Positions 10,336 through 58,505 of a stretch of 64,000 bases of DNA are shown piece after piece. Position numbers and translations under genes: made by a program. Source of the DNA: Bacteroidia bacterium. GTDB lineage: Bacteria > Bacteroidota > Bacteroidia > NS11-12g > UBA9320. The DNA is taken from contig JAQWNJ010000017.1 in assembly GCA_029268695.1 (NCBI GenBank), positions 56,521 through 120,520 of the forward strand. Reading direction: 5' to 3'. Below the pieces are notes generated by a model. That model was given only the letters and a program-made list of their open reading frames with translations, ran no database searches and was not told where the DNA came from. Every line of letters starts with the position of its first letter. Within the stretch, counting starts at the first letter, position 1.

Positions 10336-10360
10336 CAAACTTTTAATAGAGTAAAAAGAT

Positions 10361-11623: not shown

Positions 11624-11732
11624 GCTTATTTGGCTTGCACTTTAATAGCAATCTAAATTAATTTTATAGACATAATAGAATTAAATGTTTAAAAATGACA
11701 TTTTTAATCTATTCGCATAACAATATGCATCA

Positions 11733-11740
11733 TATATTTG
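11733..11740 (+). promoter_or_regulatory. Candidate internal -7 promoter element (TATATTTG) in the gldK-gldL spacer
   Basis: TAnnTTTG match 34 nt upstream of the preferred gldL start (11774); no clear -33 TTTG. Confidence 0.25.
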
Positions 11741-11773
11741 AAAAAATTATTAAAAACATTAAAATTAAAAATT

Positions 11774-12424: not shown

Positions 12425-12459
12425 TCTTTCACATAATTAAAAATTAAATAAATAAAATT

Positions 12460-14037
12460 ATGGCTGGAGGTAAATTATCCCCGCGGCAGAAGATGATTAA
12501 CATGATGTACCTTGTACTCATGGCTCTTCTTGCCCTAAACGTATCGAAAGAGATTTTAAAATCTTTTCACCTATTCGAACAAAGTTTTAATAATGCGGCT
12601 TTAAATATTGACGCTAAAAACAAGGCAACGTTCGCTGCACTTCAAAAATCAAGTGATGAAAATCCTTTAAAAACTAAACCTTACATTGAACGAGCTCGCA
12701 AAACTCAAACCATTGCTAACGATTTTGTAAAATATGTAAATAATTTAATTTCTACAACTGAAACCCTTTATGGTGGTGATGAAGCTCGAAATGAAGAAGG
12801 TGAAATGTTAGCTGCTGACCAAATGGAAAAGCATGCCAATTATTTTGTCAATGAAGGTCATGGAAAAGAATTTCAAGACAAAATAAATAAGGCAAGAGAG
12901 GATATGCTTAATATTCTTAAACCTGATTTGTCTGATACACTATACAATATCAAAACCAACGAAGTTTATGATGAGGTCAAAGCATCTTGTCAACTTTGGG
13001 CTAAAGAACCTACTGGTGGTAAAGGGACATGGGTGTCTCAAAACCTTGAACACGTTCCCGCAGCTGGTCTTATGGCGGTTCTTTCAAGAATCAAAAATGA
13101 TGCTAAATCTCTAGAGGCTAATGTTTTAGAAAAATTAGCAAGTAGAATTGATGCAACAGATTACAAATTTGACAAGCTCGAAGCCAAAGTCCTAGCAAAA
13201 TCAAATTATGTGATGCAAGGCGAACCATACGAAGCAGATATATTATTGGTTGCTTCTGATTCTAAAAGTGATCCACAAATTACCGTTGATGGAACAAGTA
13301 TAAATGTTGAAGGTGGTGTTGGTAAATACACACAACTTGCAGGTGGTATTGGCATCAAAACCTTTGCTGGTAAAATAGTTGTCAATGGACCTGAAGGACC
13401 TCAAGAATTTGAATTCGCAGATGAATTTACCGTATTTAAACCTGCAGCAACCATTGCAGCTACTGAAATGAATCTTCTTTACAAAGGCATTGATAACCCG
13501 ATGTCGATCTCTGTCCCTGGGTTTGCTGCCTCTGATGTAAGAGTGTCTGCTCCTGGATTAAATTTAAAATCACTGGGTGGAGGTAAATACAATGCGAAAG
13601 TTCCAAGCAGTACAAGTCGAGAAGTAAGAATTACTGCCTCTATAACAAGAGATGGAAAATCAAAGGTTGTTGGATCACAGAAATTTAGAGTTAGAAGTTT
13701 GCCTCAACCAAGAGCTCAATTAGGAGGTATTCCGAATGATGGCCTCCCCAAAGGAAAGGCATCTGTATCTGCTCAATCCTCAATTATTGCATCTATGGGT
13801 GCCGGTTTTGCTTACAATCTAAACTACAGAGTACAAGGATTTAAGCTAATCATGGCATACAAGAGAAAACCTCCCGTTATGGAAAATAGTTCTAGTGGAG
13901 CTTTAACTAATCGAATGAAATCTTTGATTAGATCAGCTAAAAAAGGAGACAGAATTTTAATAGAAGGTATACGAGCCAAGGAAGCAAAATATGGTTTTAA
14001 AGCCAATTTGAGTCCAATCATTATCACTATTAAATAA
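12460..14037 (+). CDS. gldM: Gliding motility / T9SS protein GldM (PorM)
   Basis: MAGGKLSPRQKMINMMYLVLMALLALNVSKEIL is the hallmark GldM N-terminus; single TM helix and large periplasmic region, 525 aa. Confidence 0.9.
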   Translation: MAGGKLSPRQKMINMMYLVLMALLALNVSKEILKSFHLFEQSFNNAALNIDAKNKATFAALQKSSDENPLKTKPYIERARKTQTIANDFVKYVNNLISTTETLYGGDEARNEEGEMLAADQMEKHANYFVNEGHGKEFQDKINKAREDMLNILKPDLSDTLYNIKTNEVYDEVKASCQLWAKEPTGGKGTWVSQNLEHVPAAGLMAVLSRIKNDAKSLEANVLEKLASRIDATDYKFDKLEAKVLAKSNYVMQGEPYEADILLVASDSKSDPQITVDGTSINVEGGVGKYTQLAGGIGIKTFAGKIVVNGPEGPQEFEFADEFTVFKPAATIAATEMNLLYKGIDNPMSISVPGFAASDVRVSAPGLNLKSLGGGKYNAKVPSSTSREVRITASITRDGKSKVVGSQKFRVRSLPQPRAQLGGIPNDGLPKGKASVSAQSSIIASMGAGFAYNLNYRVQGFKLIMAYKRKPPVMENSSSGALTNRMKSLIRSAKKGDRILIEGIRAKEAKYGFKANLSPIIITIK

Positions 14038-14083
14038 TTTATTGAGAAATAATTCGTTATTTTGCAGAATCGAGATTAAAGAT

Positions 14084-14917
14084 ATGAATAGAATACTTAT
14101 AATATGCATGACTATTTTCCTTATGACCTCTGCGTCTAAGGCACAAATAAGTAAATTCGAAGATTTTACATTCCCACACACAGCTGTGAAAGAACGTAAA
14201 GCTGTTCCTTATCGCTATATCCGTGAAGCAAATGTTAAATGGAGTAAGCGTATTCATCGAGTTATTGATGTCAGAGAAAAGCAAAACAAGGTAATGCACT
14301 GGCCTAGAAACCCTTTCTATCTTCTTGTTTGGAACGCTGCAATGAATGGTGAATTAACTGCTTATGCTAACGATTCTCTAACATCTATTAAGACTCCTGA
14401 GGATATCATGAAAGAAATCAGTATTGAAACAACAGTAATGGTTCCTAATCCTGATAACCCAGATGATCCTTACGATTTAGTTCAAACTACAGTTGTTGAA
14501 ACTCAAGAGCCTTCTGATTTTGTTAAATACAGACTTATGGAAGATTGGATTTTTGATTATAATTATTCTGACTTTAAGGCTAGAATTATCGCTATAGCCC
14601 CGCTGATTAGTCCATTAACAGAGTCTGGCGTGGAATTAGGTGAAATTCCTCTATACTGGTTGAAAATGGATGACTTGAGAGACAAGCTATCTCAAGAAGA
14701 AGTATTTAACGGTAAAAATGATGCCGCTAGAATGAGCTTTGACCATTGGTTCCAAATGAGGCAGTTCAGTAGTTATATTGTCAAAGAAAGTAACATGTAT
14801 GACCTAGATATTTCGATGCTTGAGGAATTCAGAGATGATGGTGTAGAAGCACTGCTTGAGAGTGATCGAATCAAGAATGAGTTATTCATACTAGAACACG
14901 ATCTCTGGGAATACTAA
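14084..14917 (+). CDS. gldN: Gliding motility / T9SS protein GldN (PorN)
   Basis: Last gene of the gldKLMN block; signal peptide MNRILIICMTIFLMTSASKAQ from the Met at 14084 (track start 14042 adds 14 non-signal residues); ~280 aa, typical of GldN. Confidence 0.75.
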   Translation: MNRILIICMTIFLMTSASKAQISKFEDFTFPHTAVKERKAVPYRYIREANVKWSKRIHRVIDVREKQNKVMHWPRNPFYLLVWNAAMNGELTAYANDSLTSIKTPEDIMKEISIETTVMVPNPDNPDDPYDLVQTTVVETQEPSDFVKYRLMEDWIFDYNYSDFKARIIAIAPLISPLTESGVELGEIPLYWLKMDDLRDKLSQEEVFNGKNDAARMSFDHWFQMRQFSSYIVKESNMYDLDISMLEEFRDDGVEALLESDRIKNELFILEHDLWEY

Positions 14918-36094: not shown

Positions 36095-38935
36095 TTATTT
36101 AATCTTCAGACTATACCCAATCTTAAAAGTTCTTTGAGCTTGACGCTGAGTAAAAATTTGATCTTCAGCATTATATCCACGATATACTTGAACTGGAATA
36201 TCGTTTAGGATATTTGTTACAGCAAAAGATAATTGTGATCTTTTTTCTTTTCCAAGCGAGTAGGATGACTTGAAATTTAAACTATGAAAAGACTCCGTAT
36301 AAATATCTGGCAAACGTCCAATTCCTACAATCGATAATTTAGGCCCTTGAACATTATAGGATAGGTTGGCAATAAAACCAGATTCTCTGTTATCATAATT
36401 CATCCCTACATTAATGATATAGGGAGCTTGACCCTGCATCTCTCTCTTGTCAGCAAGAGTTTGTCCTTCTCGTAATTCATTCATTTTTCCAATTCTCTCA
36501 TTAGGGGTCATTTCTACTTGTGATAGTATGTAAGAAAAATTACTAACTAATGAGAGTTTATCCGACAAGAAAGAAAGCGACTTTCTGATTTCTAACTCTG
36601 CACCGTATATGTCCGCACTCACTGCATTTCTAGGAGTAAAGTTGGTTGGCGTCTCCGGTTTATAGACAACGATCTCAATTGGATTATTAAAATGTTTGTA
36701 GAATCCACTCACAGAAATTAATTCTCCTCTTTTCATGAATTTCTCAAAACGTATATCAAGATTGGTTATTTCAGTCTGTTCCAAATCTAGATTACCAATA
36801 AATGTTCTTCCAGAAATTGGATCATAAATTTGAGCCAATGATTTTTCCTTAAAGGACGGTCTTGCAATCGTTTGTGATGCAGCCAATCTTATGTTAACAT
36901 CTGATGTTGCTCTGAAAACAAAACTTGCAGAAGGTAAAACATTAAATTCGTTTAGTACATTTTCATTGGAGTAAACCTCATTATTTGTATTTTCTCCCGT
37001 GTAAAACATATCAGCTTTTTCAACTCTTAACCCGTAAATTGCAGTTGATCTTGAACCTATGGGGAGCTCATTCATTGCATAAGCACCCATGACATTCATT
37101 GAAGAAATAAACTCATTTGACTTGATGGGTTCTCCAAAAACTGCATATCCTCGATCTGATTCAGCTTTGTAAAGGTATTCGTCAAATATCTGATTAGGAT
37201 CACCATTCAAATTAAAGCTACCAATCGGCTGGAATACATATTGTAAAACCCCAAAATCACGATGCTTATAATTGTGAGCTATTCCAAATTTCAACTTAGA
37301 AACTTTGCTATTTCCTAAGAAAATTTTTCGTTCTGCATCAAACTTACTATTGATATTCTTCTCACTTAGATTACGATAAAGTCTTTTAATTTCTGAGCCG
37401 GCACCCACATTAAATTTATAACCATCCTCGCCAACAGAGAGGGCTGTTATCTTCATATCGGGCTCATAATTAGTAGAAATTGATGGAGATAGTTTAGTTA
37501 TAAATTTCCAAGCTGAATCTTTCTTAAACTCATGCTTAAAGAACAAATTAGTAAGTGTTCGCTGATTGTAGTATAAGATTGTTCTGTCTAACGTAGCTCC
37601 AGCATCACCAAAAGGATTAGCAACATTCTCATATAATAGTTTAGATGATTTTTTTACCCCATTTCTTGTGTGAAAAATAGAAGTACTGAAACTATGCTTA
37701 CCTGATTTAATTGAACCATTAGCGAGTGTGCTCCACAATACTTCATTTTCACCTACACTACCATTGTTCTTTTCAGCTAGGGTTAGCTCATTCACTAATT
37801 TATCTTCATTTCTCAAATACGTTTGAAAAATCACATTATCGTAATAATTAAAATTATTACTATAACCTGTTGCTACATTAAACCCATAGGTCTTATTTTT
37901 TTTGTTATACTGATTACCGTAGTCCAACGAAAAAGAGGTGTTTAACATACTTGTTTGAGACATCACGTCCATATTTTTATTGAAGGCATTCGCATTCCTC
38001 TCCGCTCGTTGAGCACCTCCTCCTGATTGTGTATACTCAGACTTTGGTATAACTTTAGGTTCAGAAAAGGGAAGGCTTCTAGATGATTTTCCAAATGCTA
38101 ATAAATCCGCGTTGGTGGATTCATAGCTCAAATAATTTGAATTCAAATTCATCGCTGGATTAAAACCAAGACTTAGTGAAATACTCATAGCTTCTTTAGA
38201 CTGAAAGTCTTTGGTTTGAATATCTACCCAACCACCAGTAAAATCTCCTGCCAAATTTGGAGTAAAGCTTTTTAGGATTACTATATTGTCAATAAGATTT
38301 GTTGGGAAAATATCCATTTGCACAGTATTCTTATCCGGATCTAGTCCAGGAATTTCCATACCGTTTAGGACAGTTTTAGTGTATCGATCGCCTAATCCTC
38401 TAATAAAAAGATATTTACCTCCATCAACACTAACGCCAGTAACCCTACTAGCTGCACTGGCTGCGTCTCCATCTCCAGCTTTTTTGAAAGCTTGTGCAGA
38501 GACCCCATCCATTAAATTGACAGATTTTTTCTGAGCAACAATCAGTGCATTTTCGGAGTTTGTTGCTTTTTTGACACGAATAGTTACACCGCCTTTTACA
38601 GCATCTTGGGCTTGAATACCTATTTTGATAATTCCTAAATCAACAACTTCTCCCTCGACAAGATTAACATTAGATATGATTTTGGTATCATAACCCATTA
38701 ATTTGATTTGAATGTCATGAGACCCTACTAGGAAACTTGCGGTAAAATTCCCTTCTGTATCAGAATATCCTCCGCCATTTGATGTAGGTGATGTAATCGT
38801 GGCACTCACAAGTGGTTCACCATTTGAAATATCTAGAATCTTGCCCGTAACTTCAGCTCTCTGTACTTTTAGAGTCATTTGTGCCTTCACATAAAAAGAT
38901 AGCAAAATGAATATAAAAGTGATTGATTTTTTCAT
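36095..38935 (-). CDS. TonB-dependent outer-membrane receptor with N-terminal carboxypeptidase-regulatory-like domain
   Basis: Signal peptide, CarbopepD_reg-like beta-sandwich (ITSPTSNGGGYSDTEGNF), plug-like region (VDGGKYLFIRGLGDRYTKTVLNGMEIP), long beta-barrel; 946 aa. Confidence 0.75.
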   Translation of the reverse strand: MKKSITFIFILLSFYVKAQMTLKVQRAEVTGKILDISNGEPLVSATITSPTSNGGGYSDTEGNFTASFLVGSHDIQIKLMGYDTKIISNVNLVEGEVVDLGIIKIGIQAQDAVKGGVTIRVKKATNSENALIVAQKKSVNLMDGVSAQAFKKAGDGDAASAASRVTGVSVDGGKYLFIRGLGDRYTKTVLNGMEIPGLDPDKNTVQMDIFPTNLIDNIVILKSFTPNLAGDFTGGWVDIQTKDFQSKEAMSISLSLGFNPAMNLNSNYLSYESTNADLLAFGKSSRSLPFSEPKVIPKSEYTQSGGGAQRAERNANAFNKNMDVMSQTSMLNTSFSLDYGNQYNKKNKTYGFNVATGYSNNFNYYDNVIFQTYLRNEDKLVNELTLAEKNNGSVGENEVLWSTLANGSIKSGKHSFSTSIFHTRNGVKKSSKLLYENVANPFGDAGATLDRTILYYNQRTLTNLFFKHEFKKDSAWKFITKLSPSISTNYEPDMKITALSVGEDGYKFNVGAGSEIKRLYRNLSEKNINSKFDAERKIFLGNSKVSKLKFGIAHNYKHRDFGVLQYVFQPIGSFNLNGDPNQIFDEYLYKAESDRGYAVFGEPIKSNEFISSMNVMGAYAMNELPIGSRSTAIYGLRVEKADMFYTGENTNNEVYSNENVLNEFNVLPSASFVFRATSDVNIRLAASQTIARPSFKEKSLAQIYDPISGRTFIGNLDLEQTEITNLDIRFEKFMKRGELISVSGFYKHFNNPIEIVVYKPETPTNFTPRNAVSADIYGAELEIRKSLSFLSDKLSLVSNFSYILSQVEMTPNERIGKMNELREGQTLADKREMQGQAPYIINVGMNYDNRESGFIANLSYNVQGPKLSIVGIGRLPDIYTESFHSLNFKSSYSLGKEKRSQLSFAVTNILNDIPVQVYRGYNAEDQIFTQRQAQRTFKIGYSLKIK

Positions 38936-39116: not shown

Positions 39117-40409
39117 TTAAAAATCAGATAATAATCCTTCTGCATCTGCAAGTGTCCATCCAACAAATTCAGATTTATCAGCACCACCATCTTTAGCAGT
39201 TACTAATTTATTACCCGAAGAAACAAACTTAGCATCTGAAGCAGCAGCATCAGCACCTTCAGCTTTGTCAGCGAAAATATCTTCTACAGAAGACCAAGTA
39301 GTTGTATTTCCATCTGGCTCGCCATCTTCGTCTAATGTCCATGCAGTAGAGTTGAAAGAATTGTTAGCAATGTTAAGAGCTCCTGAAGAAAAGTTAGAAG
39401 ATACAACTGGCTCATCCAATTCAACATCAGCATTTTGATTGAATCCAAAGAAATAAAGACCTTCAACAGTTCCTCGAGCTTTTGATCTAAAATCAGTAAA
39501 CTCACCTTGAACAGCGTTACCCATCAATGAACCATTCTTTAATGTGAAAGAAGCTTCCGAATTTTCAGAACCTTCTGGTCCGTCAATCTCTAAACCATGG
39601 TCAGAGCTTTCTCCACCTATGTAAATGAAGTTATCAATAGTACCAGCATAAGCCTGATCAATATCGTAAGCGTCATCTCCTTGATACATTACCAATGCAT
39701 GATCTATGTTGACTGTTCCTCCAAAGCATTCGATACCATCATCAACATTAGCCACTACCTCTACGTGGTGGATAGTAGTACCTGTACCAACTCCACCCAA
39801 TGTAAGACCGTTGATTTCATTACCTTCACCGATTAAAGTACCTCCGTGACGGATAGAGATGTAAGTAATTATACCTGAATTATCTGCAGCATCAGGACCA
39901 CCGTAGTTACCTTCAACAACATCAGCAGGGATTCCTTCAATCTGCTCTGTGGCTCCTGTTTTTGGAGAAGTTGGTGCATTACCCAATACGATAAGACCAC
40001 CCCAGAAACCAGTTGCAGTAGCAGGATCCAAATTTGATCCAAATTTCTCTCCTAAAGCGATCTCATCAGCGATAGATGTAAAGATAATTGGATTTTCTGC
40101 AGTTCCTGCAGCGATAATTTTTGCTCCTCTTGCTATAACTAGAGATGAAGCATTTGCACCTGTTCCAGCTTCGCCTTTAACGATTGTACCAGGTTGAATT
40201 GTTAATGTTACTCCACTTTTAACTACAACCCTATCTTTTAAAATATGAAACTTGTCTGAAGACCATGTTTCATCTTCAGAAATAAACCCAGAATGATCTA
40301 CTGAATTAGCATTAACAGTTGGTTCAGTGATAATATCATCATCAGAGTCACATGCAGTAAAGAATAAAGATAAAAGGATGATTGAAAATAATAATGTTTT
40401 GCTTTTCAT
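39117..40409 (-). CDS. Hypothetical surface-exposed lipoprotein (Gly/Asp/Thr-rich, beta-rich), upstream of TBDR
   Basis: Signal peptide MKSKTLLFSIILLSLFFTAC, then CDSDDDIITE, an acidic Bacteroidota lipoprotein surface-export signal; 430 aa mature protein; track start 40463 replaced by the Met that gives a proper signal peptide. Confidence 0.55.
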   Translation of the reverse strand: MKSKTLLFSIILLSLFFTACDSDDDIITEPTVNANSVDHSGFISEDETWSSDKFHILKDRVVVKSGVTLTIQPGTIVKGEAGTGANASSLVIARGAKIIAAGTAENPIIFTSIADEIALGEKFGSNLDPATATGFWGGLIVLGNAPTSPKTGATEQIEGIPADVVEGNYGGPDAADNSGIITYISIRHGGTLIGEGNEINGLTLGGVGTGTTIHHVEVVANVDDGIECFGGTVNIDHALVMYQGDDAYDIDQAYAGTIDNFIYIGGESSDHGLEIDGPEGSENSEASFTLKNGSLMGNAVQGEFTDFRSKARGTVEGLYFFGFNQNADVELDEPVVSSNFSSGALNIANNSFNSTAWTLDEDGEPDGNTTTWSSVEDIFADKAEGADAAASDAKFVSSGNKLVTAKDGGADKSEFVGWTLADAEGLLSDF

Positions 40410-40496
40410 TTTGTTATTTGTTGTTAATTTTATACTGCAACGTTGGTTAAGTAATATTATCAATAGGTTAACAAAATTTTATTTTTTCACTAATGT

Positions 40497-47082: not shown

Positions 47083-49479
47083 GTGCGTCGGCTATATTTA
47101 ATATTACTAATAACACTATGCCTTGCTGGTACTGCACAAATTCGAATTGTAAATAAAAATTTGGAAAGTATTTCTGGAGTACTTCTCATGCAATCAACAA
47201 AAGTTATTGGTATTTCAGACCAGTCAGGAACAATTAATATAGACACTTCATCTACTGAAATAGACAATTTATTCTTATCGCACAAAAACTATTATCAAAA
47301 GGATATAACACCAAACCTCTTGTTTGATAACTCTACTATCATTTTAACTAAAAAAATCAATTCGTTTAACCCTGTCGTAGTTTCTGCTGGCAGAAATTTT
47401 CGATATAAAAATGATATAGCATTGCTCACCCAAAGAATAGATAAGAAAAAGATTGAACTCATTCTTCCTCAAACCGCTGCTGATCTTTTAAACATCGATC
47501 AAAATATCTATATACAAAAAACCCAACAAGGTGGTGGAAGTCCTATTATCCGTGGATTTTCTACAAATCGAATATTATTAGTTGTAGATGGGGTTAGAAT
47601 GAATACTGCAATTTTTAGATCTGGAAATGTTCAAAATGTAATTTCTATTGACCCTTTTACCGTTGAAAGTACTGACTTGATTTTTGGACCATCAAGCCAA
47701 TTCTATGGAAGCGATGCTATTGGAGGAGTTCTGAATTTCACGACAGTAAAACCTGAGTTTACTGAAAATAAAATGGATCTGAAAACTAAAACTAACCTAA
47801 GATATAGTTCTGCTAATAATGAAAAAACCTACCACAGTCAATTTTCTTTTAGTGGAAAAAGGATAGCTACTGTAACAGGTTTTACTTTCAGTAAATTTGA
47901 CGATTTAAAAATAGGTAAAAAAGGGAGTAAAGTTTATGGCCGACCAGACTATATTTCAACAAGGTTTTCATCAGATACAATTATCAATAACAGCGATGAA
48001 AGCATCCAGATAAATAGTGGTTACAATCAAAAGAATTTCTTGCATAAAACCTCGTTTAAAATCAGTTCAAACTCACAGATTCACTATGGTATTCAATATA
48101 GTGAAACGTCTAATATTCCTAGATATGATCGACTCATTCAACGGGACGAATTGAACCAATTAAGTCAAGCTGAATGGTATTACGGACCTCAAATATGGAT
48201 GTTTAATAATCTAACATTTAAGCACATTAGCAAAACAAAACTATTTGACGAGTTTAAGTCAACCATTGCACATCAGAAATTTGTTGAAAGTAGAAATACA
48301 CGAAAAATATATTCGAACCTTCTTAATCAAAGAGAAGAAAAAGTTAGTGCATGGAGTTTAAACGCAGATTTCTCCAAATACATTAATTCAAAAACACAAA
48401 TAAACTATGGTTTAGAATATGTGTCTAACATAATTCAAAGTTCGGGAAGTCAATTAAATACAAATAATCAAACGAAACAAGCCATTACAACAAGATATCC
48501 TAATGGGGCATATTGGAAGACTGGCGGTATATATTTTAATGTTATCCAAAGGTGGAGTAACCATTCAATTACTGAAGGTGGTTTGAGGTATAATCTTGTT
48601 GGGATGAATGGCCAATTTGATACATCGTTAACATCCTACCCTATTTCAGATTTTAATATTACTAATCGAGCAATAACTGGTTCAATATCTCAGTTAGTTA
48701 AGAAAAAATTTGGTTCAATCAGCTTCGTTTTATCAACTGCTTTTCGATCTCCAAACATAGACGATATTGCCAAAACATTTGATAGCAATCCTGGGTTTAT
48801 CACTATTCCAAACCCCAACTTAAAACCAGAATATGCATATCATGGTGAAGTTAATTTAGACTACAATATTTCCAGAAAAATTAAAATTCAAAATTCAGTT
48901 TTCTATACTTATTTGAATCAAGCAATTAATCTCTCAAATACAATGCTTAATGGGGCTGATAGTGTAATCTATGATAATACTTTGAGTCAGGTACAAATGC
49001 TTACAAATGATCAATACGCTTCAGTTGTAGGAGACCAAATTACCATAAAATACAGTCCAAACGAATTTATATCTCTCAAGACAACTTACACTTTTTTAAA
49101 TAGTCAATCAAGTAGTGGTGATGCGATTAGACACATCACACCTAATTTTGGTAGTACCACACTATTAATGAATTATAGAAAATACAATTTAATGGTGTAT
49201 AGTATTTATAATCAAAGATTTAACAACAATCAATTTTCTAACACTGAAAAAAACAAACCACAATTTTATTTGACAGACAAAAATGGGTTAGCATATTCTC
49301 CATCTTGGCACACATTTAACATAAAATTGGGCTACTATTTGAATACTAAAGTTATACCCTATCCGATCAAGATTAATTTCGGGGTAGAAAACATAATGGA
49401 TAAAAGATACAGACCTTACAGTTCGAGACTAACAGCACCAGGAAGGAACATTGTAGTTGCATTACAAGTAAAAATTTAG
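47083..49479 (+). CDS. TonB-dependent outer-membrane receptor
   Basis: Signal peptide LCLAGTAQ; plug-domain motifs (QQGGGSPIIRGFSTNRILLVVDGVRMN; FGPSSQFYGSDAIGGVLNF); 798 aa beta-barrel. Confidence 0.8.
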   Translation: MRRLYLILLITLCLAGTAQIRIVNKNLESISGVLLMQSTKVIGISDQSGTINIDTSSTEIDNLFLSHKNYYQKDITPNLLFDNSTIILTKKINSFNPVVVSAGRNFRYKNDIALLTQRIDKKKIELILPQTAADLLNIDQNIYIQKTQQGGGSPIIRGFSTNRILLVVDGVRMNTAIFRSGNVQNVISIDPFTVESTDLIFGPSSQFYGSDAIGGVLNFTTVKPEFTENKMDLKTKTNLRYSSANNEKTYHSQFSFSGKRIATVTGFTFSKFDDLKIGKKGSKVYGRPDYISTRFSSDTIINNSDESIQINSGYNQKNFLHKTSFKISSNSQIHYGIQYSETSNIPRYDRLIQRDELNQLSQAEWYYGPQIWMFNNLTFKHISKTKLFDEFKSTIAHQKFVESRNTRKIYSNLLNQREEKVSAWSLNADFSKYINSKTQINYGLEYVSNIIQSSGSQLNTNNQTKQAITTRYPNGAYWKTGGIYFNVIQRWSNHSITEGGLRYNLVGMNGQFDTSLTSYPISDFNITNRAITGSISQLVKKKFGSISFVLSTAFRSPNIDDIAKTFDSNPGFITIPNPNLKPEYAYHGEVNLDYNISRKIKIQNSVFYTYLNQAINLSNTMLNGADSVIYDNTLSQVQMLTNDQYASVVGDQITIKYSPNEFISLKTTYTFLNSQSSSGDAIRHITPNFGSTTLLMNYRKYNLMVYSIYNQRFNNNQFSNTEKNKPQFYLTDKNGLAYSPSWHTFNIKLGYYLNTKVIPYPIKINFGVENIMDKRYRPYSSRLTAPGRNIVVALQVKI

Positions 49480-49480
49480 C

Positions 49481-50446
49481 TTATTTTTTCTTGTCAGGTT
49501 TACTGATACTATCTCTCATATCTGTATCAGCTTGAATGTTCTTCATTTTATAATAATCCATGATGCCTAGATTACCACTTCGAAATGCTTCTGCCATTGC
49601 CTTGGGAACTTCTGCCTCGGCAAGGATTACAAGTGCACGAGCATCTTGAGCTTTCGCCTTCATCTCCTGTTCTTGAGCTACAGCCATTGCTCTACGCTCT
49701 TCGGCCTTAGCATTTGCTACCTTAAGATCTGCCTCTGCTTGATCAGTTTGTAGTTCTGCACCGATATTTTTACCTATATCTATATCGGCTATATCAATAG
49801 ATAAGATTTCAAATGCAGTACCCGCATCCAAACCTTTTGCTAAAACTGTCTTAGATATGGTATCTGGATTTTCTAATACTGCTTTGTGAGTTGTAGCTGA
49901 ACCAATTGTAGTTACGATTCCCTCTCCTACACGAGCAAGAATAGTATCCTCTCCTGCACCACCAACTAACTGAGCGATATTTGCTCTAACAGTAACTCTA
50001 GCTTTTGCGATTAATTGTATTCCATCCTTTGCAACAGCGGCTACAGGAGGTGTATTAATAACTCTTGGGTTTACAGAAAGTTGAACCGCATCTGCTACAT
50101 CTCTACCTGCTAAATCAATAGCAGCTGCCATATTGAAATCTAAAGGAATACTTGCTTTATCTGCAGAGATAAGAGCTTTAACTACATTATTAACATTACC
50201 ACCTGCCATAAAATGAGTTTCCAATTCATTTGAAGATACAGGTATTCCAGCCTTATTTCCATTAATTAAAGCATTTACGATAAGAGAAGGAGGTACTTTT
50301 CTAATTCGCATGAATATCAACTGAATGATACTAACACTTTTACCTGAAATTGAAACTTGAGCAGTTACCCAAAGCCCCAATGGAACAAAGTAGAAAAACA
50401 CAAAGAGTAGGACTACTCCAACGATTAAAAAAGGTATAATTCCCAT
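49481..50446 (-). CDS. floA: Flotillin-like protein FloA (SPFH/band-7 family)
   Basis: Near-collinear similarity to B. subtilis FloA/YqfA ([17 protein letters not shown]; AIDLAGRDV; [26 protein letters not shown]; [21 protein letters not shown]; [15 protein letters not shown]). Confidence 0.85.
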
Positions 50447-50452
50447 TAGATA

Positions 50453-50920
50453 TTATTGATTAATTATTTTAATATATATTTTGTTATTGTCTATTTTTTC
50501 GACTTCAATTTCTACTCCTGAGGGTATAAAATTTCCTTCAGAATGCACTTCAATACGCTGAGATTTGACACGAGCTATACCAGATGGCCTTATCGCACTT
50601 ATTGTTTTACCTGTATCTCCCACTTGCACTTCTAATTTACCAATATCGTTAGCTTTACCTGTAATTGTTTCTTTGTTAGAAAACATATCCCATGCACCGT
50701 TACGAAAGGCATACACAATAATCACAGTCATGATGGCGATTATCAATGCTAAAAGAATATTGCCATGTAACATACCATAATCAATATATGTAAAGTATAC
50801 CCCAACTCCAACCATAACTACACCTACAATTCCAACAATAAAACCTGGTACAATAAAAATCTCAATGAGAAGCAATAAAATTCCTAGAATAACAAAAGAG
50901 GCAACAATAGAAAGTGTCAT
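50453..50920 (-). CDS. NfeD-family membrane protein (flotillin-associated)
   Basis: Three N-terminal TM helices plus C-terminal OB-fold beta domain; immediately upstream of floA as in nfeD-floA operons. Confidence 0.7.
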   Translation of the reverse strand: MTLSIVASFVILGILLLLIEIFIVPGFIVGIVGVVMVGVGVYFTYIDYGMLHGNILLALIIAIMTVIIVYAFRNGAWDMFSNKETITGKANDIGKLEVQVGDTGKTISAIRPSGIARVKSQRIEVHSEGNFIPSGVEIEVEKIDNNKIYIKIINQ

Positions 50921-50948: not shown

Positions 50949-53801
50949 TTAAACCTCAAGATAATCTGCAACAGGAAGACAACTACATACCAAATTTCGA
51001 TCCCCATAGGTATTATCTACTCTACCAACGCTAGGCCAAAATTTGTTTTGTTTCACATAGGATGCAGGGTAAGCTGCCTTTGTTCTTGAATAGGGTCGAT
51101 CCCAATCATCACCTGATACAAGTTGAGCCGTATGCGGTGCGTGTTTTACAACATTATTGTCTTTATCTGCTAATCCTTTTTCAATATCAGCTATTTCTTC
51201 TCGTATGGATAAAAGAGCATCACAAAAACGATCTAATTCTGACTTACTTTCGCTCTCTGTAGGCTCAATCATCAAAGTACCTGGAATTGGGAAACTCACT
51301 GTTGGTGCATGAAAACCATAGTCGATAAGTCGTTTAGCAATGTCTTCTACTTGGATGCCAGAGGTAAGTTTGAAAGGTCGAGGATCAACAATCATTTCGT
51401 GAGCTACTGTTCCATTTTGACCAGTATACAAAACATCATAGCCATCAGATAAACGATATTTCATATAATTTGCATTCAATATAGCTGTTGCAGTTGCTCT
51501 TTTTAGACCTTTAGTTCCCATCATTTTAATGTATGCATAACTAATTAACAATATGCTTGCACTTCCAAATGGAGCAGCACTAACTGCTCGCATCGCTTTA
51601 TCCGAACTTACACCCTCAACAACAGAATGTCCAGGCAAATATGGAGCAAGATGTTTGGCCACTCCAATAGGACCCATTCCAGGTCCCCCACCACCATGAG
51701 GAATACAAAAGGTTTTGTGTAGATTCAAATGACATACATCTGCACCAATATTTGCAGGATTGGTATAGCCTACTTGAGCATTCATATTGGCACCATCCAT
51801 ATAAACTTGTCCTCCAAATTCATGGATTAATGATGTCACTTCTTTGATGGTTTCTTCATAAACACCGTTTGTACTTGGATATGTAATCATTGCTGCTGCT
51901 AGAGTTTCTCCATGAGCCTCTACTTTTTCTCTTAAGTCAGCTAAATCAATGTACCCATTTTCGTGGCACTTAACTACAACAACTTTCATACCTGCCATTA
52001 CTGCACTTGCTGGGTTTGTACCATGTGCAGATTCAGGTATAATTACAATATTCCGGTGATGTTGATTGGTATCTTTAAAAAATTCCCTGATGGTCATGAG
52101 GCCAGTGTACTCTCCTTGAGCTCCTGCATTAGGTTGAAGGCTCACCTGATGAAAACCTGTTATTTCAGATAAATCGCGTTCTAAATCATGCAACAACTCC
52201 TCGTATCCTGCAAGCTGTTCTTTTGGGGCAAATGGATGAATATTTCCAAAAGACTCCCAAGTTACTGGAATCATCTCACTAGTAGCATTCAATTTCATGG
52301 TACAACTTCCCAAGGCAATCATTGAATGTGCTAAAGACAAATCTTTATTTTCTAGGGATTTAAGGTATCTTAACATTTCATGCTCTGTATGGTATGAATT
52401 AAACACGGGGTGTTCCAAATAAGTAGAGCTTCTGTTCAATTCTAAATCCCACATCTGAGATGTTTTTTCATCGAATTCTAATTCGACACCTTTAAGCTTT
52501 GCAAATAATTCAATGAGCTGCATAACATCTTGAATTTCGGTCGTTTCATCAATACTAATCCCAATATAATCCGACTCATAACGAACATTAATTTTATACT
52601 GATTAAGTAGTTCCCGCAAACTTGATTGATCAGTTTTGTCGAATAAAATAGCAATTGTGTCAAAAGCACTATTATTTTTTAAATCATATCCAATTTTAAC
52701 CAGATTATTTGCTAAAATACTGGTGAGTTGATTGACTTTTTGAGCAATTTTTTTAAGTCTTTCAGGCCCATGATAAACTGCATACATCCCTGCCATCACA
52801 GCAAGAAGTGCTTGAGCTGTACAAATATTACTAGTGGCCTTATCTCTTTTAATGTGTTGTTCACGGGTTTGGAGAGCCATTCTCAAGGCGGTGTCACCAT
52901 TGGAATCCTGAGAAACCCCAATTACTCTACCAGGCAATCTTCGCTTATGCTTTTCTTTGGTTGCAAAATAAGCAGCATGAGGTCCACCATTTCCCATTGG
53001 TATACCGAACCTTTGAGTACTCCCAACAACAACCTCAGCTCCCCAAGAACCAGGTGCTTCTAATAAAGTTAATGAAAGAATATCTGCAGCAACAACAGTT
53101 TTGATTTGATGTACTGCTGCTCTCTCAACCAAATCACTGTAATCTTCCACTTTGCCCTCTCCATTTGGGTATTGTACAAAGAGACCAAAAAAGTCCTCAT
53201 TAAATTCAAAATTTGTAGGATTCCCCTTGACAACAGATATACCTAGTGGTTCCGCTCTGGTTTCAATGACGTCTATCGTCTGAGGAAATGCTTTATCTGA
53301 AACAAAAAACTTATTTCCATTTTGTCTACTTTTTGCCGAAAAGACCATCGCCATACCCTCAGCAGCAGCGGTGGCTTCATCCAAAAGACTTGCATTTGCT
53401 ATTTCCATACCTGTCAAATCCATAATCATAGTTTGAAAGTTGAGTAATGCTTCCAACCTACCTTGAGCTATTTCGGCTTGATAAGGTGTATATTGAGTAT
53501 ACCAACCTGGGTTTTCAAGAATGTTTCTTAAAATAACTTTTGGAGTATGAGTTCCATAGTAGCCCATACCAATGTAATTTTTAGAAATTTGATTTTTTCT
53601 TCCAATTGATTTCAACTTAGATAATAGTTCAATCTCTGTCAAAGGTTCATCTAATTTCAGTTCGTTTAGAAGTCTAATTTCATTGGGTATTGTGTCAGAA
53701 ATGAGTTCTTCCATTTTATCATACCCAAGCAAGGATAGCATCTGGTGTTCTTCTTTGAAATTCATGCTATTGTGGCGGTCAGAAAAATGCTCTTTATACA
53801 T
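50949..53801 (-). CDS. gcvP: Glycine dehydrogenase (decarboxylating), glycine cleavage system P protein
   Basis: 950 aa single-chain P protein; conserved N-terminus (FSDRHNSMNFKEEHQMLSLLG...), PLP-Lys region CHLNLHKTFCIPHGGGGPG. Confidence 0.9.
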   Translation of the reverse strand: MYKEHFSDRHNSMNFKEEHQMLSLLGYDKMEELISDTIPNEIRLLNELKLDEPLTEIELLSKLKSIGRKNQISKNYIGMGYYGTHTPKVILRNILENPGWYTQYTPYQAEIAQGRLEALLNFQTMIMDLTGMEIANASLLDEATAAAEGMAMVFSAKSRQNGNKFFVSDKAFPQTIDVIETRAEPLGISVVKGNPTNFEFNEDFFGLFVQYPNGEGKVEDYSDLVERAAVHQIKTVVAADILSLTLLEAPGSWGAEVVVGSTQRFGIPMGNGGPHAAYFATKEKHKRRLPGRVIGVSQDSNGDTALRMALQTREQHIKRDKATSNICTAQALLAVMAGMYAVYHGPERLKKIAQKVNQLTSILANNLVKIGYDLKNNSAFDTIAILFDKTDQSSLRELLNQYKINVRYESDYIGISIDETTEIQDVMQLIELFAKLKGVELEFDEKTSQMWDLELNRSSTYLEHPVFNSYHTEHEMLRYLKSLENKDLSLAHSMIALGSCTMKLNATSEMIPVTWESFGNIHPFAPKEQLAGYEELLHDLERDLSEITGFHQVSLQPNAGAQGEYTGLMTIREFFKDTNQHHRNIVIIPESAHGTNPASAVMAGMKVVVVKCHENGYIDLADLREKVEAHGETLAAAMITYPSTNGVYEETIKEVTSLIHEFGGQVYMDGANMNAQVGYTNPANIGADVCHLNLHKTFCIPHGGGGPGMGPIGVAKHLAPYLPGHSVVEGVSSDKAMRAVSAAPFGSASILLISYAYIKMMGTKGLKRATATAILNANYMKYRLSDGYDVLYTGQNGTVAHEMIVDPRPFKLTSGIQVEDIAKRLIDYGFHAPTVSFPIPGTLMIEPTESESKSELDRFCDALLSIREEIADIEKGLADKDNNVVKHAPHTAQLVSGDDWDRPYSRTKAAYPASYVKQNKFWPSVGRVDNTYGDRNLVCSCLPVADYLEV

Positions 53802-53927: not shown

Positions 53928-55244
53928 ATGCCAGAACAAATTTTTGAACCTTTAATTACACAAGACACCATTCTATTTGGGGTTCTTGCGAGTTGCTTGG
54001 GGCTTGTTTTTATGACAAGTAGCTCAAACAAAGCATTCTGGAAAAAATTTTATACCATAGTACCTGCTCTATTTATGGCCTACTTCCTACCAGCAATTCT
54101 TACCACACTTGGAATTATTGCTCCCGAGTGGAATACCATTTCTGAGACGGGTGAAATCATACAACATGAATCCAACCTATACTACGTCGCTAGTAGATAT
54201 TTCTTACCTGCTGCTCTTGTATTGATGACATTAAGTCTTGACCTAAAAGCTGTTTTTAATTTAGGACCCAAAGCCCTAATTATGTTTCTAACAGGTACTG
54301 TCGGTATAATCATCGGTGGTCCAATAGCTATCTATATATTATCGCTAATCTATCCAGAAGCCATTGGAGGTATTGGCCCTGATGCAGTTTGGAGAGGATT
54401 AGCAACATTAGCTGGAAGTTGGATTGGAGGGGGAGCCAATCAGACAGCAATGCTGGAGATCTATGGATACAACCAAAAATTATACGGCGGAATGGTCTTC
54501 GTTGACATCGTGGTAGCAAATATTTGGATGGCTATACTACTAATTGGTATAGGTAAAACTGAAAAAATTGATCGTTGGTTAAAGGCTGACACTACCGCAA
54601 TAGAAGATTTAAAAGCCAAAGTATCAAAGTTTACTCAAGAAGTAACCAAGAATCCATCATTAAAAGACTTAATCATATTGCTCTCAGTTGCATTTGGTAC
54701 AGTTAGTCTTTCTCATTTTTTTGCAAATATTCTGGCTCCATTTTTCGAATCAAAAATTTCTACTATTGAACATTTGACACTTCGAAATACATTTACCTTT
54801 CTAGGTTCAAGTTTTTTTTGGATGATTAGTATCTCAACGCTTATTGCTATAATCTTATCATTCACTAAAGTTCGAAAGTTAGAAGGAGCAGGTGCAAGTA
54901 AAATAGGAAGTGTATTCATCTACGTCTTAGTCGCTACAATCGGTATGAAAATGGATTTAACAATGATTTTTGATAATTTAGGACTATTAGCCATAGGGTT
55001 AATCTGGATGAGTGTTCATGCAGCACTTTTAGTAATAGTTGCCAAATTAATTAGAGCTCCATATTTCTTTTTAGCAATTGGCAGTCAAGCCAATGTGGGT
55101 GGTGCTGCGTCAGCTCCTGTAGTTGCATCTGCTTTTCATTCTTCGTTAGCTACTGTTGGAGTATTATTGGCAGTATTTGGGTACGCTGTTGGCACTATTG
55201 GTGCAATAGCTTGCACACTACTCATGCAGATAATTGCACAATAA
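53928..55244 (+). CDS. DUF819-family polytopic membrane protein
   Basis: 438 aa with more than 10 predicted TM helices; family assignment from memory of the N-terminal pattern. Confidence 0.45.
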   Translation: MPEQIFEPLITQDTILFGVLASCLGLVFMTSSSNKAFWKKFYTIVPALFMAYFLPAILTTLGIIAPEWNTISETGEIIQHESNLYYVASRYFLPAALVLMTLSLDLKAVFNLGPKALIMFLTGTVGIIIGGPIAIYILSLIYPEAIGGIGPDAVWRGLATLAGSWIGGGANQTAMLEIYGYNQKLYGGMVFVDIVVANIWMAILLIGIGKTEKIDRWLKADTTAIEDLKAKVSKFTQEVTKNPSLKDLIILLSVAFGTVSLSHFFANILAPFFESKISTIEHLTLRNTFTFLGSSFFWMISISTLIAIILSFTKVRKLEGAGASKIGSVFIYVLVATIGMKMDLTMIFDNLGLLAIGLIWMSVHAALLVIVAKLIRAPYFFLAIGSQANVGGAASAPVVASAFHSSLATVGVLLAVFGYAVGTIGAIACTLLMQIIAQ

Positions 55245-55313: not shown

Positions 55314-56909
55314 ATGGCGGTATTATCTACGACAAGAACAAATTCAGGAATTTCAACTTATTCTGGTCCATGGGACAAGTCTGCAGTCATTCATTTGCTA
55401 AGGAGAGTTCATTTTGGTGTTACCAAAGAAAATATTGATTACTTTGTTAATCTAACACAGGCTGAAGCTATCAATGAAGTTCTTGATATAGACTACAGCA
55501 TTCCATCTCCCCCAATTAATAATTACAATGACAATAATCCGGATCCCAACGTAAATCCTGGAGAGTCTTGGGTAAATGACTACAATGGTCAACTCAATAA
55601 TATCAGAAGACGATCTTTCAAATCTTGGTGGGTTGGACAAATTGTCAATCATGATCTAACTATTCGTGAAAAAATGGTCCTTTTTTGGCATAATCATTTT
55701 TCAACGCAATCTGCAGTATATGGTTGGGCAAACTTTGGATATCAAAATAATCAACTTCTGAGATCGAATTGTCTAAAAAACTTTAAATCATTGGTCAAAG
55801 ATGTAACACTTGACCCTGCAATGTTAGTATTCTTAAATGGAGAGAGAAATAGTAAAACTGCTCCAGATGAGAATTACTCTAGAGAGCTTCAAGAGCTCTT
55901 TACACTTGGAAAAGGTCCAGAATCACAATACACTGAAACAGACGTTATTGCTGGTGCAAAAGTCCTTACTGGTTGGAGGATAAATCGAACTACGGGAGAT
56001 GTATATTTCCAAAGTACTAGGCATGACACTTCAGATAAAAAGTTTTCAGCTTACTACAATAATTATACAGTTACTGGCCAATCAGGTCAAGCAGGTATCA
56101 ATGAATTAGATGATATGCTAAACATGATATTTGCCCAAAATGAGGTAGCAAATCATATTGTTCGTAAATTATACCGTTGGTTTGTCTATTACAAAATAGA
56201 CGAAAACACAGAATCCAATGTTATCATACCACTTGCCAATATTTTCAGAAATAGCGGATATGAGATTAAACCTGTTCTCGAAGCGTTGTTCAACAGTGAA
56301 CACTTTTTTGATACTGCAAATCGTGGTGCATTAATTAAAAGTCCAACTGATTTTTTACTTGGTCTAACAAGAACTTTTGGAATTCCCATACCAGAATCAA
56401 GTGATTATGTAGATCAATACGCTTTTTGGAATAGGCTACAATCATCCACTGCACTAATGCAACAAGAACTTGCAGACCCGCCAAGTGTCTCAGGTTGGCC
56501 AGCATATTATCAAATCCCACAATTCCATGAATTATGGATAAACAGTGATACCATTTCAAATAGAAATAAAGTTTCTGACACACTTGCTGTAAATGGATAT
56601 AGAATTGGCACTACCAGACTTAAAATAGATCCATTGCACTTTACGAAAAAATTTAATACGGCAAGTGATCCAAATCTACTAATCAATGACTTTTTAGAAA
56701 TCATGCACACCTTAGATGTAGATCAGAATCAGCGAGAATATATGAAGTCTATACTCCTTTCTGGACAACTCAATGATGATTATTGGACTGAAGCCTGGAA
56801 TGCTTATATAGGTGATCCGGATAATACAACTAAAGCGAATATTATTTCGTCACGTTTATCAGCTTTGTTCAAATATTTAATGAACCTTAGCGAATTTCAG
56901 CTTTCTTAA
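55314..56909 (+). CDS. DUF1800-family protein
   Basis: HLLRRVHFGVTKENIDYF near N-terminus and FWHNHFST motif, both typical of DUF1800; always partnered with DUF1501. Confidence 0.7.
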   Translation: MAVLSTTRTNSGISTYSGPWDKSAVIHLLRRVHFGVTKENIDYFVNLTQAEAINEVLDIDYSIPSPPINNYNDNNPDPNVNPGESWVNDYNGQLNNIRRRSFKSWWVGQIVNHDLTIREKMVLFWHNHFSTQSAVYGWANFGYQNNQLLRSNCLKNFKSLVKDVTLDPAMLVFLNGERNSKTAPDENYSRELQELFTLGKGPESQYTETDVIAGAKVLTGWRINRTTGDVYFQSTRHDTSDKKFSAYYNNYTVTGQSGQAGINELDDMLNMIFAQNEVANHIVRKLYRWFVYYKIDENTESNVIIPLANIFRNSGYEIKPVLEALFNSEHFFDTANRGALIKSPTDFLLGLTRTFGIPIPESSDYVDQYAFWNRLQSSTALMQQELADPPSVSGWPAYYQIPQFHELWINSDTISNRNKVSDTLAVNGYRIGTTRLKIDPLHFTKKFNTASDPNLLINDFLEIMHTLDVDQNQREYMKSILLSGQLNDDYWTEAWNAYIGDPDNTTKANIISSRLSALFKYLMNLSEFQLS

Positions 56910-56921
56910 CCCCTACTAAAA

Positions 56922-58505
56922 ATGAAAAGAAGAGATTTCCTCAAACGAGTAGCACCAGCGTCACTACTTCCATTTGCAATAAATGGCCAACCTATTACGG
57001 CATATGGTAAATTATTTGGAACAAATGCAGAAGATTTTACTGAAACTGATAAAGTTTTAGTTCTTGTTCAACTAAATGGAGGTAATGATGGGTTAAATAC
57101 ACTTATACCTCTTGATCAATATCAAAATTTAACCAAGGCACGACCCGATGTGATATTACCTGAAAATAAAGTCCTCCCTCTAAATGGTATTGACGGTACA
57201 GGATTACATCCATCCATGTCAAAAATGAAAAATATGTATGATGAAGGTAAAATGCGAATCATACAATCGGTAGGTTATCCAAATCAAAACTACTCCCACT
57301 TCAGATCAACAGATATATGGATGTCAGGATCTGATTCAAATGAAATTCTTGAAAGTGGCTGGGTAGGTCGATACTTATCTGAAGAATGGCCCAACTATCC
57401 AAATGGTTTTCCTAATGATGATATGGAGGATCCACTTGCCATTCAAATTGGATCACTCGTATCACAGGTATGTCAAGGTGTTGCAGTTAATATGGGATTT
57501 GCCCTTTCAAATCCTACTAATTATTACCAACTATTAACTGGTAATTATCCAGATGCCCCAAATACATGGGCGGGTAAAGAGTTAGACTACCTGAGAACAG
57601 TAGCAAGACAGACTAATGAATATTCCGTCAAAATAAAAGAAGCTGCAGAAAGTTCAACTAATTTATCTGATCTATACCCAGAAGGCAATCGACTAGCAGA
57701 TCAACTTAAAATTGTTGCCCAATTAATAGCTGGTGGTCTTAAAACACGTGTATACATTGTATCTCTTGGAGGTTTTGATACGCACGCTAATCAAGTTGAC
57801 CCTGTGGATAGTAATGAAACAGGTTACCATGCATTCTTGCTGGAAACCGTATCTGAGGCTATCAATGCATTTCAGGATGATATCGAAAAACTAAAGATCG
57901 ATCATCGAGTTTTAGGAATGACGTTTAGTGAATTTGGAAGACGAATAATTAGTAACGCAAGCACAGGAACTGATCACGGGTCTGCTGCTCCATTATTCAT
58001 GTTTGGGTCTAAAGTTAAATCTGGTATGTCTGGAAATAACCCTATAATTCCTGATGAAGTAACAGCCAAAGATAATCTTGAGATGGAATTTGACTTCAGA
58101 ACAATTTACAGTTCAATTCTCCAAGATTGGTTCTGCTTAGATAAAACAGATACAGATAGTATTCTCCTGCAAGATTTTGAAAAAATGAATATTATCCAAG
58201 ATGCCTGTTCTACATCATCTGCAGATCGCTTAAAACAAAAGCAAACTGGCGATGCATATATCAGGAATTATCCTAACCCTTTTGGAAATGAGACCACTAT
58301 TAAATATTTTTCTAATGGTGATCAAATTAATATTTCCATTGTAGATGTTCATGGACGATTGATTGATACACTAGTTAGTGACAACATACCACATGGCTCA
58401 CATGAAATAAAGTTTAACGCTTCAAGTCTAAAACCTGGCACCTATTATCTTACATACCAAAGTGGCTTAATAACTCAAACCAGAAGCTTACTTAAAATCA
58501 GGTAA
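56922..58505 (+). CDS. DUF1501-family (sulfatase/alkaline-phosphatase-like) protein with Tat signal and T9SS type-A C-terminal sorting domain
   Basis: Tat motif KRRDFLKRVAPASLLPFA; DUF1501 motifs LVQLNGGNDGLNTLIP, GGFDTHANQ, GTDHG; C-terminal ~80 aa YPNPFGNETTIKY...ISIVDVHGRLIDTL...GSHEIKFNASSLKPGTYYLTYQSG fits the T9SS CTD pattern. Confidence 0.75.
   Translation: MKRRDFLKRVAPASLLPFAINGQPITAYGKLFGTNAEDFTETDKVLVLVQLNGGNDGLNTLIPLDQYQNLTKARPDVILPENKVLPLNGIDGTGLHPSMSKMKNMYDEGKMRIIQSVGYPNQNYSHFRSTDIWMSGSDSNEILESGWVGRYLSEEWPNYPNGFPNDDMEDPLAIQIGSLVSQVCQGVAVNMGFALSNPTNYYQLLTGNYPDAPNTWAGKELDYLRTVARQTNEYSVKIKEAAESSTNLSDLYPEGNRLADQLKIVAQLIAGGLKTRVYIVSLGGFDTHANQVDPVDSNETGYHAFLLETVSEAINAFQDDIEKLKIDHRVLGMTFSEFGRRIISNASTGTDHGSAAPLFMFGSKVKSGMSGNNPIIPDEVTAKDNLEMEFDFRTIYSSILQDWFCLDKTDTDSILLQDFEKMNIIQDACSTSSADRLKQKQTGDAYIRNYPNPFGNETTIKYFSNGDQINISIVDVHGRLIDTLVSDNIPHGSHEIKFNASSLKPGTYYLTYQSGLITQTRSLLKIR

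Follow-up and report, generated by a model that had tools for sequence, protein, structure and literature searches.

The DUF1800/DUF1501 locus

We analysed a 64,000-nucleotide stretch of a Bacteroidia bacterium genome (assembly GCA_029268695.1, contig JAQWNJ010000017.1, positions 56,521 to 120,520 of the forward strand; hereafter the window), in which a DUF1800 gene is followed directly by a DUF1501-family gene. The DUF1501 protein begins with a twin-arginine (RR) motif, the hallmark of the pathway for twin-arginine translocation (Tat), and ends with a type IX secretion system (T9SS) C-terminal sorting domain (CTD) of type A. Throughout a very large family the two signals are intact and strongly conserved; a T9SS is also encoded by the organism. 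The two domains, the DUF1800/DUF1501 pairing and the database annotation were already known; what is new is the combination and its implication. An earlier note on this DNA had placed the pair at 55314–58505, and both open reading frames (ORFs) indeed lie at exactly these coordinates, each with a Pfam match to its family. The features of the locus are as follows.

55314–56909, + strand: DUF1800 protein gene; 531 aa, mostly alpha-helical, without signal peptide; suggested to be the DUF1501 enzyme's partner subunit
56910–56921, + strand: intergenic spacer of 12 nt (cccctactaaaa) between the DUF1800 stop and the DUF1501 start, read directly
56922–58505, + strand: DUF1501-family gene; 527 aa, comprising an RR signal peptide, an alkaline-phosphatase-superfamily catalytic domain and a T9SS type-A CTD
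56922–57008, + strand: predicted signal peptide, DUF1501 residues 1–29, with a putative cleavage site
56925–56945, + strand: twin-arginine consensus K2-R-R-D-F-L-K8 of the DUF1501 protein
57045–58241, + strand: DUF1501 catalytic domain, residues ~42–440, alkaline-phosphatase superfamily
58260–58502, + strand: T9SS type-A CTD, DUF1501 residues 447–527, seven-strand beta-sandwich

The DUF1800 protein spans the whole Pfam profile (PF08811, positions 1–419 of 419; 314.1 bits against 26.1, E = 2.2e-93). The DUF1501 protein, whose N-terminal sequence is MKRRDFLKRVAPASLLPFAINGQPITAYG, matches its profile over residues 274–371 only (PF07394, 58.3 bits against a gathering score of 27). The two genes share a reading frame and are probably co-transcribed. 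For comparison we used related loci from a scan of GTDB species with one genome per species, taking the best 80 of at least 600 matching stretches. DUF1800 adjoins DUF1501 in 76 of these 80 loci, and the gap between them is short in most of the 76 (median ~13 nt).

A conserved twin-arginine N-terminus

The predicted signal peptide of DUF1501 has a basic n-region, a proline-rich and weakly hydrophobic h-region (VAPASLLPFAI) and a sequence, A27-Y-G29, that fits the −3/−1 rule; residues 1–41 are disordered in the AlphaFold2 model. Across 113 homologues sharing 51–93% identity, R3 and F6 are invariant, while M1, K2, R4 and A27 are at least 90% conserved. Both arginines, R3 and R4, are encoded by five to six synonymous codons across the loci, and their conservation therefore acts at the protein level.

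Within the window, DUF1501 is the sole ORF with an N-terminal RRxFL motif. When the window and the 80 loci are pooled, they contain 1230 ORFs that reach 150 aa; 114 of them have RRxF[LIF] at the N-terminus, and all but two of these 114 are DUF1501 or DUF1800 genes. On these sequence counts, a chance coincidence of RR motif and CTD is excluded.

We compared the signal with that of other T9SS cargo by taking the remaining CTD-bearing ORFs from the same 80 loci (n = 20), with typical MKKxxLLLxxxxxAQ signals, as a baseline for the general secretory (Sec) pathway. Hydrophobicity was expressed as the highest mean Kyte-Doolittle value in a 10-residue window (KD10max). The h-region of the DUF1501 family was markedly less hydrophobic than that of the other CTD cargo (KD10max 1.75 ± 0.29 versus 2.69 ± 0.38; Mann–Whitney p = 8e-11) and richer in proline (1.45 versus 0.15 residues). 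An N-terminus of the RRx-hydrophobic-hydrophobic type was found in 70 of 77 family members and in a single one of the 20 other cargo proteins. Low hydrophobicity is typical of Tat signals, as Cristobal et al. reportedly described in 1999. All six proteobacterial DUF1501 homologues, encoded on plasmids and chromids, have classical Tat signals, and Tat export of DUF1501 has been predicted in two papers (PMC5122149; PMC3542564). TatC is widespread in Bacteroidetes (PMC3827258).

One of the related loci, from a Cyclobacteriaceae metagenome-assembled genome (MAG; L027), also contains an unrelated 388-aa ORF (+) with a fully canonical Tat signal (MKTNHNRRNFIKRSLSAAAGLAAATIPEGYA). Judged from its sequence, this ORF is indirect evidence that Tat is used in at least some of the genomes that carry the family. 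By its signal peptide, DUF1501 is likely to depend on Tat for export.

The C-terminal sorting domain and the T9SS

The putative sorting signal lies at the extreme C-terminus of DUF1501 (residues 447–527 of 527), as the earlier note had claimed, and both curated models score above their cut-offs: PF18962 (Por_Secre_tail) with 39.6 bits against 27 over residues 450–520, and TIGR04183 with 34.2 bits against 23. AlphaFold2, supplied with 113 homologues, modelled residues 447–525 as a seven-strand beta-sandwich (pLDDT 79 for the DUF1501 model). Foldseek matched the modelled domain to the CTD of NucA in the Flavobacterium johnsoniae T9SS translocon (8glk_D, TMt 0.75) and to the CTD of mirolase (8qb1, TMt 0.71); its matches also include 2p9r and 4g5a, which are Ig-like domains. 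By sequence alone, a profile built from 87 diverse members of the family matched 8glk_D (E = 5e-5) and 8glj_D (E = 7e-5). No second ORF in the window carries a YPNP-type CTD. As modelled and as scored by both profiles, the DUF1501 C-terminus is a real T9SS type-A CTD.

A complete T9SS core cluster (9136–14917, + strand) is located ~41 kb upstream of the pair, and all five of its genes exceed their NCBIfam equivalog cut-offs.

9136–10230, + strand: porP/sprF (TIGR03519, 157.5 bits against 90.6)
10361–11623, + strand: gldK/porK (TIGR03525, 541 bits against 350)
11738–12424, + strand: gldL/porL (TIGR03513, 171 bits against 68)
12460–14037, + strand: gldM/porM (TIGR03517, 356 bits against 180)
14042–14917, + strand: gldN/porN (TIGR03523, 158 bits against 86)

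SprA, PorV and PorU were not seen within the 64-kb window. The T9SS encoded in the window is the machinery predicted to export the CTD-bearing DUF1501 protein.

The DUF1501 catalytic domain

The sulfatase/alkaline-phosphatase-like fold ascribed to DUF1501 at the outset agrees with its Pfam score above the gathering threshold and with an alkaline-phosphatase-superfamily fold. The invariant motifs are GGNDG (D56), SHFR (S125, H126), FDTH (D286, H288) and TDHG (D351, H352). At the level of single residues, D56, S125, H126, D286, H288 and H352 do not vary, and D351 is fixed among close homologues and kept in at least 90% of diverse ones. From motif order only, we infer that these seven positions correspond to the alkaline-phosphatase active-site residues. 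In this reading, DUF1501 is a putative metallo-hydrolase of the alkaline-phosphatase superfamily, nearest to NPP/PafA-type phosphodiesterases and phosphatases and also to sulfatases.

NPP/PafA/PhoK-type enzymes and S1 sulfatases share only 6–14% sequence identity with the DUF1501 catalytic domain and have no counterpart of its obligatory DUF1800 partner. No entry in the PDB matches the catalytic domain by sequence, and a CxPxR formylglycine motif was not seen in the DUF1501 family consensus.

Family spread and variants

Of the 600 matching stretches listed from the species scan, 595 were confirmed. The DUF1501 architecture thus occurs in at least 595 species genomes and is not peculiar to the source organism. 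The best 80 stretches align across DUF1501 residues 1–527; their sources are Chitinophagaceae, Saprospiraceae, Flavobacteriales, Cytophagales, Hymenobacter and MAGs labelled Ignavibacteria or Chlorobi, with a few isolates among them (Longitalea luteola and Hymenobacter cyanobacteriorum). Cultured Chitinophagaceae also carry the family. Among the matches listed, the genome of the uncultured 'Bacteroidia bacterium M30B35' is the closest (75% identity).

Database homologues have the same layout. The best 120 (52–93% identity) all carry PF07394 and PF18962 unless truncated, and nearly all start with MKRR[DE]F[LI]K. Searching exhaustively with HMMER after removal of the CTD yielded 10,655 representative clusters. 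Among 87 representatives spread over the family (33–51% mutual identity), TIGR04183 matched 76; this model was used for the count, and a family-specific CTD hidden Markov model (HMM) missed divergent CTDs. In the genomes sampled, the CTD-tailed family is confined to T9SS-bearing lineages.

Several members depart from this layout. P0161, P0217 and P0243 are ~420–435 aa long, lack the CTD and have an RK N-terminus that ends in a lipobox-like cysteine (…LTAC, …FSC, …LGSC). Their sequences suggest lipoprotein variants of the same enzyme and hence alternative anchoring routes within the family. P0126, P0129, P0145, P0170, P0232, P0245 and others are longer (600–1089 aa) and contain extra domains between the catalytic and sorting domains. 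The tails of a few longer members resemble dockerin or other repeats instead of a type-A CTD.

A proposed Tat-to-T9SS route

We propose that the pair encodes an extracytoplasmic enzyme system of two components. In it, DUF1501 would fold in the cytoplasm, where it probably takes up its metals, and would be guided by the RRxFLK signal peptide through Tat across the inner membrane, with cleavage near G29. The T9SS would then recognize the CTD, pass the protein across the outer membrane and remove the CTD, and the enzyme would be released or attached to the cell surface. Tat dependence, T9SS dependence and final location are all inferred here, and we give this sequence-based route a somewhat better than even chance of being correct. 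Such a transfer makes mechanistic sense, since proteins travel through the T9SS in folded form (PMC9251779). With less certainty, DUF1800 would bind DUF1501 in the cytoplasm and be co-exported as a Tat hitchhiker. By analogy with known hitchhikers, and given the Tat-to-T9SS step, we put forward this co-export as a tentative possibility.

The DUF1800 partner

The window DUF1800 was noted to lack an obvious signal peptide at its annotated start, which holds true: the N-terminus has no hydrophobic stretch, and the ATG is preceded, three codons upstream, by an in-frame stop. The ORF is thus not extendable upstream and cannot hide a signal peptide. Neither a hydrophobic N-terminus nor a signal peptide was found in any of 116 Bacteroidota DUF1800 homologues. 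In contrast, four of the six proteobacterial DUF1800s bear Sec or lipoprotein signals, so the protein appears to act outside the cytoplasm in those bacteria.

About half of the Bacteroidota DUF1800s, mostly from Chitinophagaceae, start with M-[DKN]-R-R-x-F-[LF] (MDRRDFLTARKKK...). This start was counted by eye and with anchored patterns (~36–40 of 71 assessable loci; ~33 of 116 database homologues); a conserved internal DUF1800 helix, HLLRRxxFG, also matches the unanchored RR pattern. The motif is absent from the clade of the window. It is followed by a basic, hydrophilic linker of 20–40 aa with no h-region (KD10max ~0.66). Both arginine positions show synonymous codon turnover, which indicates that the motif is translated and under selection.

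Loci L003–L075 (e.g. L006:800–2413, L011:8360–9943), proteins P0342–P0390: DUF1800s with an RR start

We know of no established explanation for an RR motif without an h-region. By its sequence, the DUF1800 RR start fits the idea that the protein engages the Tat receptor together with DUF1501.

Alternatively, DUF1800 could remain cytoplasmic and act as a maturation or proofreading factor for DUF1501, following the logic of TorD, DmsD and NapD. This would replace the hitchhiker step only and is compatible with Tat-to-T9SS export. The lack of any signal peptide among the 116 homologues, and of room for one in the window gene, would suit such a role, as would the all-alpha-helical character that DUF1800 shares with Tat chaperones and its tight gene coupling to a Tat substrate. 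However, at 531 aa the protein is far above the size of known Tat chaperones, the export signals of its proteobacterial relatives place it outside the cytoplasm there, and the M-D-R-R-x-F-L start, under selection in roughly half of the DUF1800s from Bacteroidota, resembles a contact to the Tat receptor rather than a trait of chaperones. We regard a cytoplasmic role as less likely than not.

The co-export proposal can be taken one step further, with the signal-less 60 kDa DUF1800 crossing both membranes: it would hitchhike through Tat on the RR signal of DUF1501 and then pass the T9SS on the DUF1501 CTD, and MDRRxFL without an h-region would be a 'half signal' not described before, able to contact the Tat receptor but not to insert by itself. 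We consider this extended version quite unlikely.

Evidence against Tat-to-T9SS export and alternative routes for DUF1501

Several observations weigh against the Tat-to-T9SS route. The twin-arginine motif had been called textbook in the earlier note; the K-R-R-D-F-L-K core is present and conserved, but the Tat signal model TIGR01409 remains below threshold (12.5 bits against 16.7) and aligns to RRDFLK only, and PF10518 does not match the window protein. TIGR01409 is passed by none of 76 close N-termini and by three of 87 diverse family members. P12, P17, G22 and A27 are unusually conserved within the h-region, which is atypical of signal peptides. Neither tatA nor tatC was found in 1.48 Mb comprising the window and 86 loci with ±10 kb flanks, searched with E. 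coli queries, a null that says little because the flanks are so short. The prediction method T9GPred applies a 'no Tat signal' rule, derived from 102 experimentally known cargo proteins taken to lack Tat signals. A full-text literature search, of incomplete coverage, did not turn up any protein described as having both a Tat signal and a T9SS CTD. As for co-export, passage of a ~105 kDa globular putative heterodimer through the T9SS translocon is, to our knowledge, without precedent.

How much the silence of TIGR01409 means can be gauged from known signals. Treated alike, the E. coli TorA and SufI peptides scored 17.9 and 21.5 bits, barely above the cut-off, and only two of the six canonical-looking proteobacterial DUF1501 signals passed (18.7, 18.2, 14.8, 9.7 and 8.1 bits, one without a match). 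Since the model fails on four of these six, its silence on the Bacteroidota family is weak evidence.

The same observations could be explained by Sec-to-T9SS export. DUF1501 would then carry a weak but ordinary Sec/SPI signal, with the RR pair a relic of an ancestral DUF1501 Tat signal, and would cross the inner membrane unfolded and fold in the periplasm before entering the T9SS. Besides the sub-threshold scores, this explanation has in its favour that every characterised T9SS cargo uses Sec and that RK or KRK replaces RR in a few family members; the CTD-less lipoprotein variants with their RK start indicate that RR can be lost. A relic, however, would not stay near-invariant across at least 595 species despite synonymous codon turnover, and the h-region, which has more proline and a lower hydrophobicity than Sec signals on other CTD cargo of these genomes, would make DUF1501 a poor Sec substrate. 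With the HMM result carrying little weight, we judge Sec export to be rather unlikely.

Tat export followed by periplasmic residence, with the C-terminal beta-sandwich serving as an Ig-like domain for structure or substrate binding, or representing a decayed CTD, is very improbable: the DUF1501s of Proteobacteria lack a CTD and presumably reside in the periplasm, some family members also lack it, and such beta-sandwiches resemble unrelated Ig-like domains (2p9r and 4g5a above), but here the domain passes two curated CTD models at the extreme C-terminus, is kept in 76 of 87 diverse representatives, matches translocon-caught CTDs by sequence and is found only in T9SS-bearing lineages of the sample, with a T9SS encoded in the window itself.

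Comparison with known secretion systems

The joint presence of a Tat signal and a CTD, which had been called unusual, stands out against the published picture. According to reviews, T9SS cargo uses Sec (PMC9127263; PMC9251779; PMC8047123; PMC11611037), and one of them lists the type II secretion system (T2SS) as 'Sec/Tat' and the T9SS as Sec only (PMC8047123). Where T9SS cargo is defined by an N-terminal Sec-type signal peptide, DUF1501 instead has an N-terminus of RRxFLK type (KD10max ~1.75 versus 2.69); this departure is what makes the family interesting and casts no doubt on its CTD. By its rule on Tat signals, T9GPred would exclude the DUF1501 family if SignalP called it Tat.

Described type-A cargo, such as NucA and ChiA of F. 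johnsoniae, the gingipains of Porphyromonas gingivalis and mirolase of Tannerella forsythia, has the same ~80-aa seven-strand CTD as DUF1501. It differs in its Sec-type signals, whereas the DUF1501 family has the conserved RRxFLK and a weak proline-rich h-region, and in lacking an obligatory signal-less partner gene.

The closest parallel to the proposed route is Tat-to-T2SS export, of which PlcH is an example and which was reportedly described in a 2001 EMBO J paper. It follows the same two-step logic, in which a protein that has folded in the cytoplasm passes the inner membrane by Tat and is handed, still folded, to an outer-membrane machine. The T2SS recognizes a conformational signal, whereas the T9SS would recognize DUF1501 by a discrete, cleavable C-terminal domain.

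Proteobacterial DUF1800/DUF1501 modules (Ralstonia, Agarilytica, Sphingomonas) resemble the Bacteroidota pair in gene order, tight spacing, Pfam families and the RR signal of DUF1501; chitin-synthase-linked copies have been described (PMC5122149). Unlike in the Bacteroidota family, their DUF1501 lacks a CTD and its Tat h-region is canonical, rich in Ala, Gly and Leu, and the signals on most of their DUF1800s have no equivalent in Bacteroidota.

For the putative DUF1800/DUF1501 complex, the relevant comparison is with Tat hitchhikers such as HybO/HybC of E. coli hydrogenase-2 (Rodrigue et al. 1999, cited in PMC9251779). As in the pair studied here, one subunit bears the RR signal and the adjacent gene encodes a signal-less partner; the partner acts outside the cytoplasm, as is proposed for DUF1800. 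Two differences are apparent: half of the Bacteroidota DUF1800s have an RR motif without h-region, whereas known hitchhiker passengers have none, and DUF1800/DUF1501 would next pass a second translocon, the T9SS.

If the Tat-to-T9SS route holds, T9SS cargo inventories would systematically miss Tat-routed proteins, and the T9SS, like the T2SS, would give an exit to proteins that have folded and taken up their metals in the cytoplasm. A cellular location would be gained for the orphan DUF1800/DUF1501 module, which has thousands of members in several phyla, along with an experimentally tractable handle in Bacteroidota. A conserved family combining Tat signal and CTD would surprise secretion specialists and is directly testable, and DUF1800 with its RR motif but no h-region offers a test case for the reach of hitchhiking across successive translocons. 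Should DUF1800 piggy-back across both membranes, the T9SS would be the second outer-membrane system known for Tat substrates. It would also be the first system shown to secrete a pre-assembled hetero-oligomer by means of one CTD.

Genomic neighbourhood

Across the related loci, the neighbours of the pair are unrelated housekeeping genes, save for a TonB-dependent receptor in ~16 loci and a nearby ABC exporter. The receptor (~800 aa; CarboxypepD_reg, Plug and barrel by Pfam) lies 3' of DUF1501 on the same strand, mostly in Chitinophagaceae, and an ABC exporter is often found near the receptor-linked pairs.

Loci L004, L005, L006, L008, L011, L014–L016, L022, L025, L028–L030, L033 and L034 (e.g. 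L006:4088–6490): pairs followed by a TonB-dependent receptor gene

This linkage is absent in the window. As a receptor gene follows the pair in some lineages, it hints at an uptake partner, and one may speculate that the pair releases a nutrient that the receptor then imports, in a scavenging role.

In the window, a DUF819 multi-pass membrane protein is encoded at 53928–55244 (+), 69 nt upstream of DUF1800 and on the same strand. We rejected it as a module member: it is probably outside the module, because the 80 related loci show no conservation of it beside the pair. In the neighbour analysis of these loci, neither DUF819 nor the other window neighbours (GcvP, RmlC and a UvrD-like protein) were conserved with the pair.

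Further away, a 448-aa ORF at 39117–40463 (−), for which neither Pfam nor NCBIfam gave a match at E ≤ 1e-5, adjoins a TonB-dependent receptor gene (36095–38935, −). The window also contains a FloA flotillin-like gene (49481–50446, −) and an NfeD gene (50453–50920, −), the usual membrane-microdomain pair, located between a TonB-dependent receptor gene (47083–49479) and gcvP (50949–53801).

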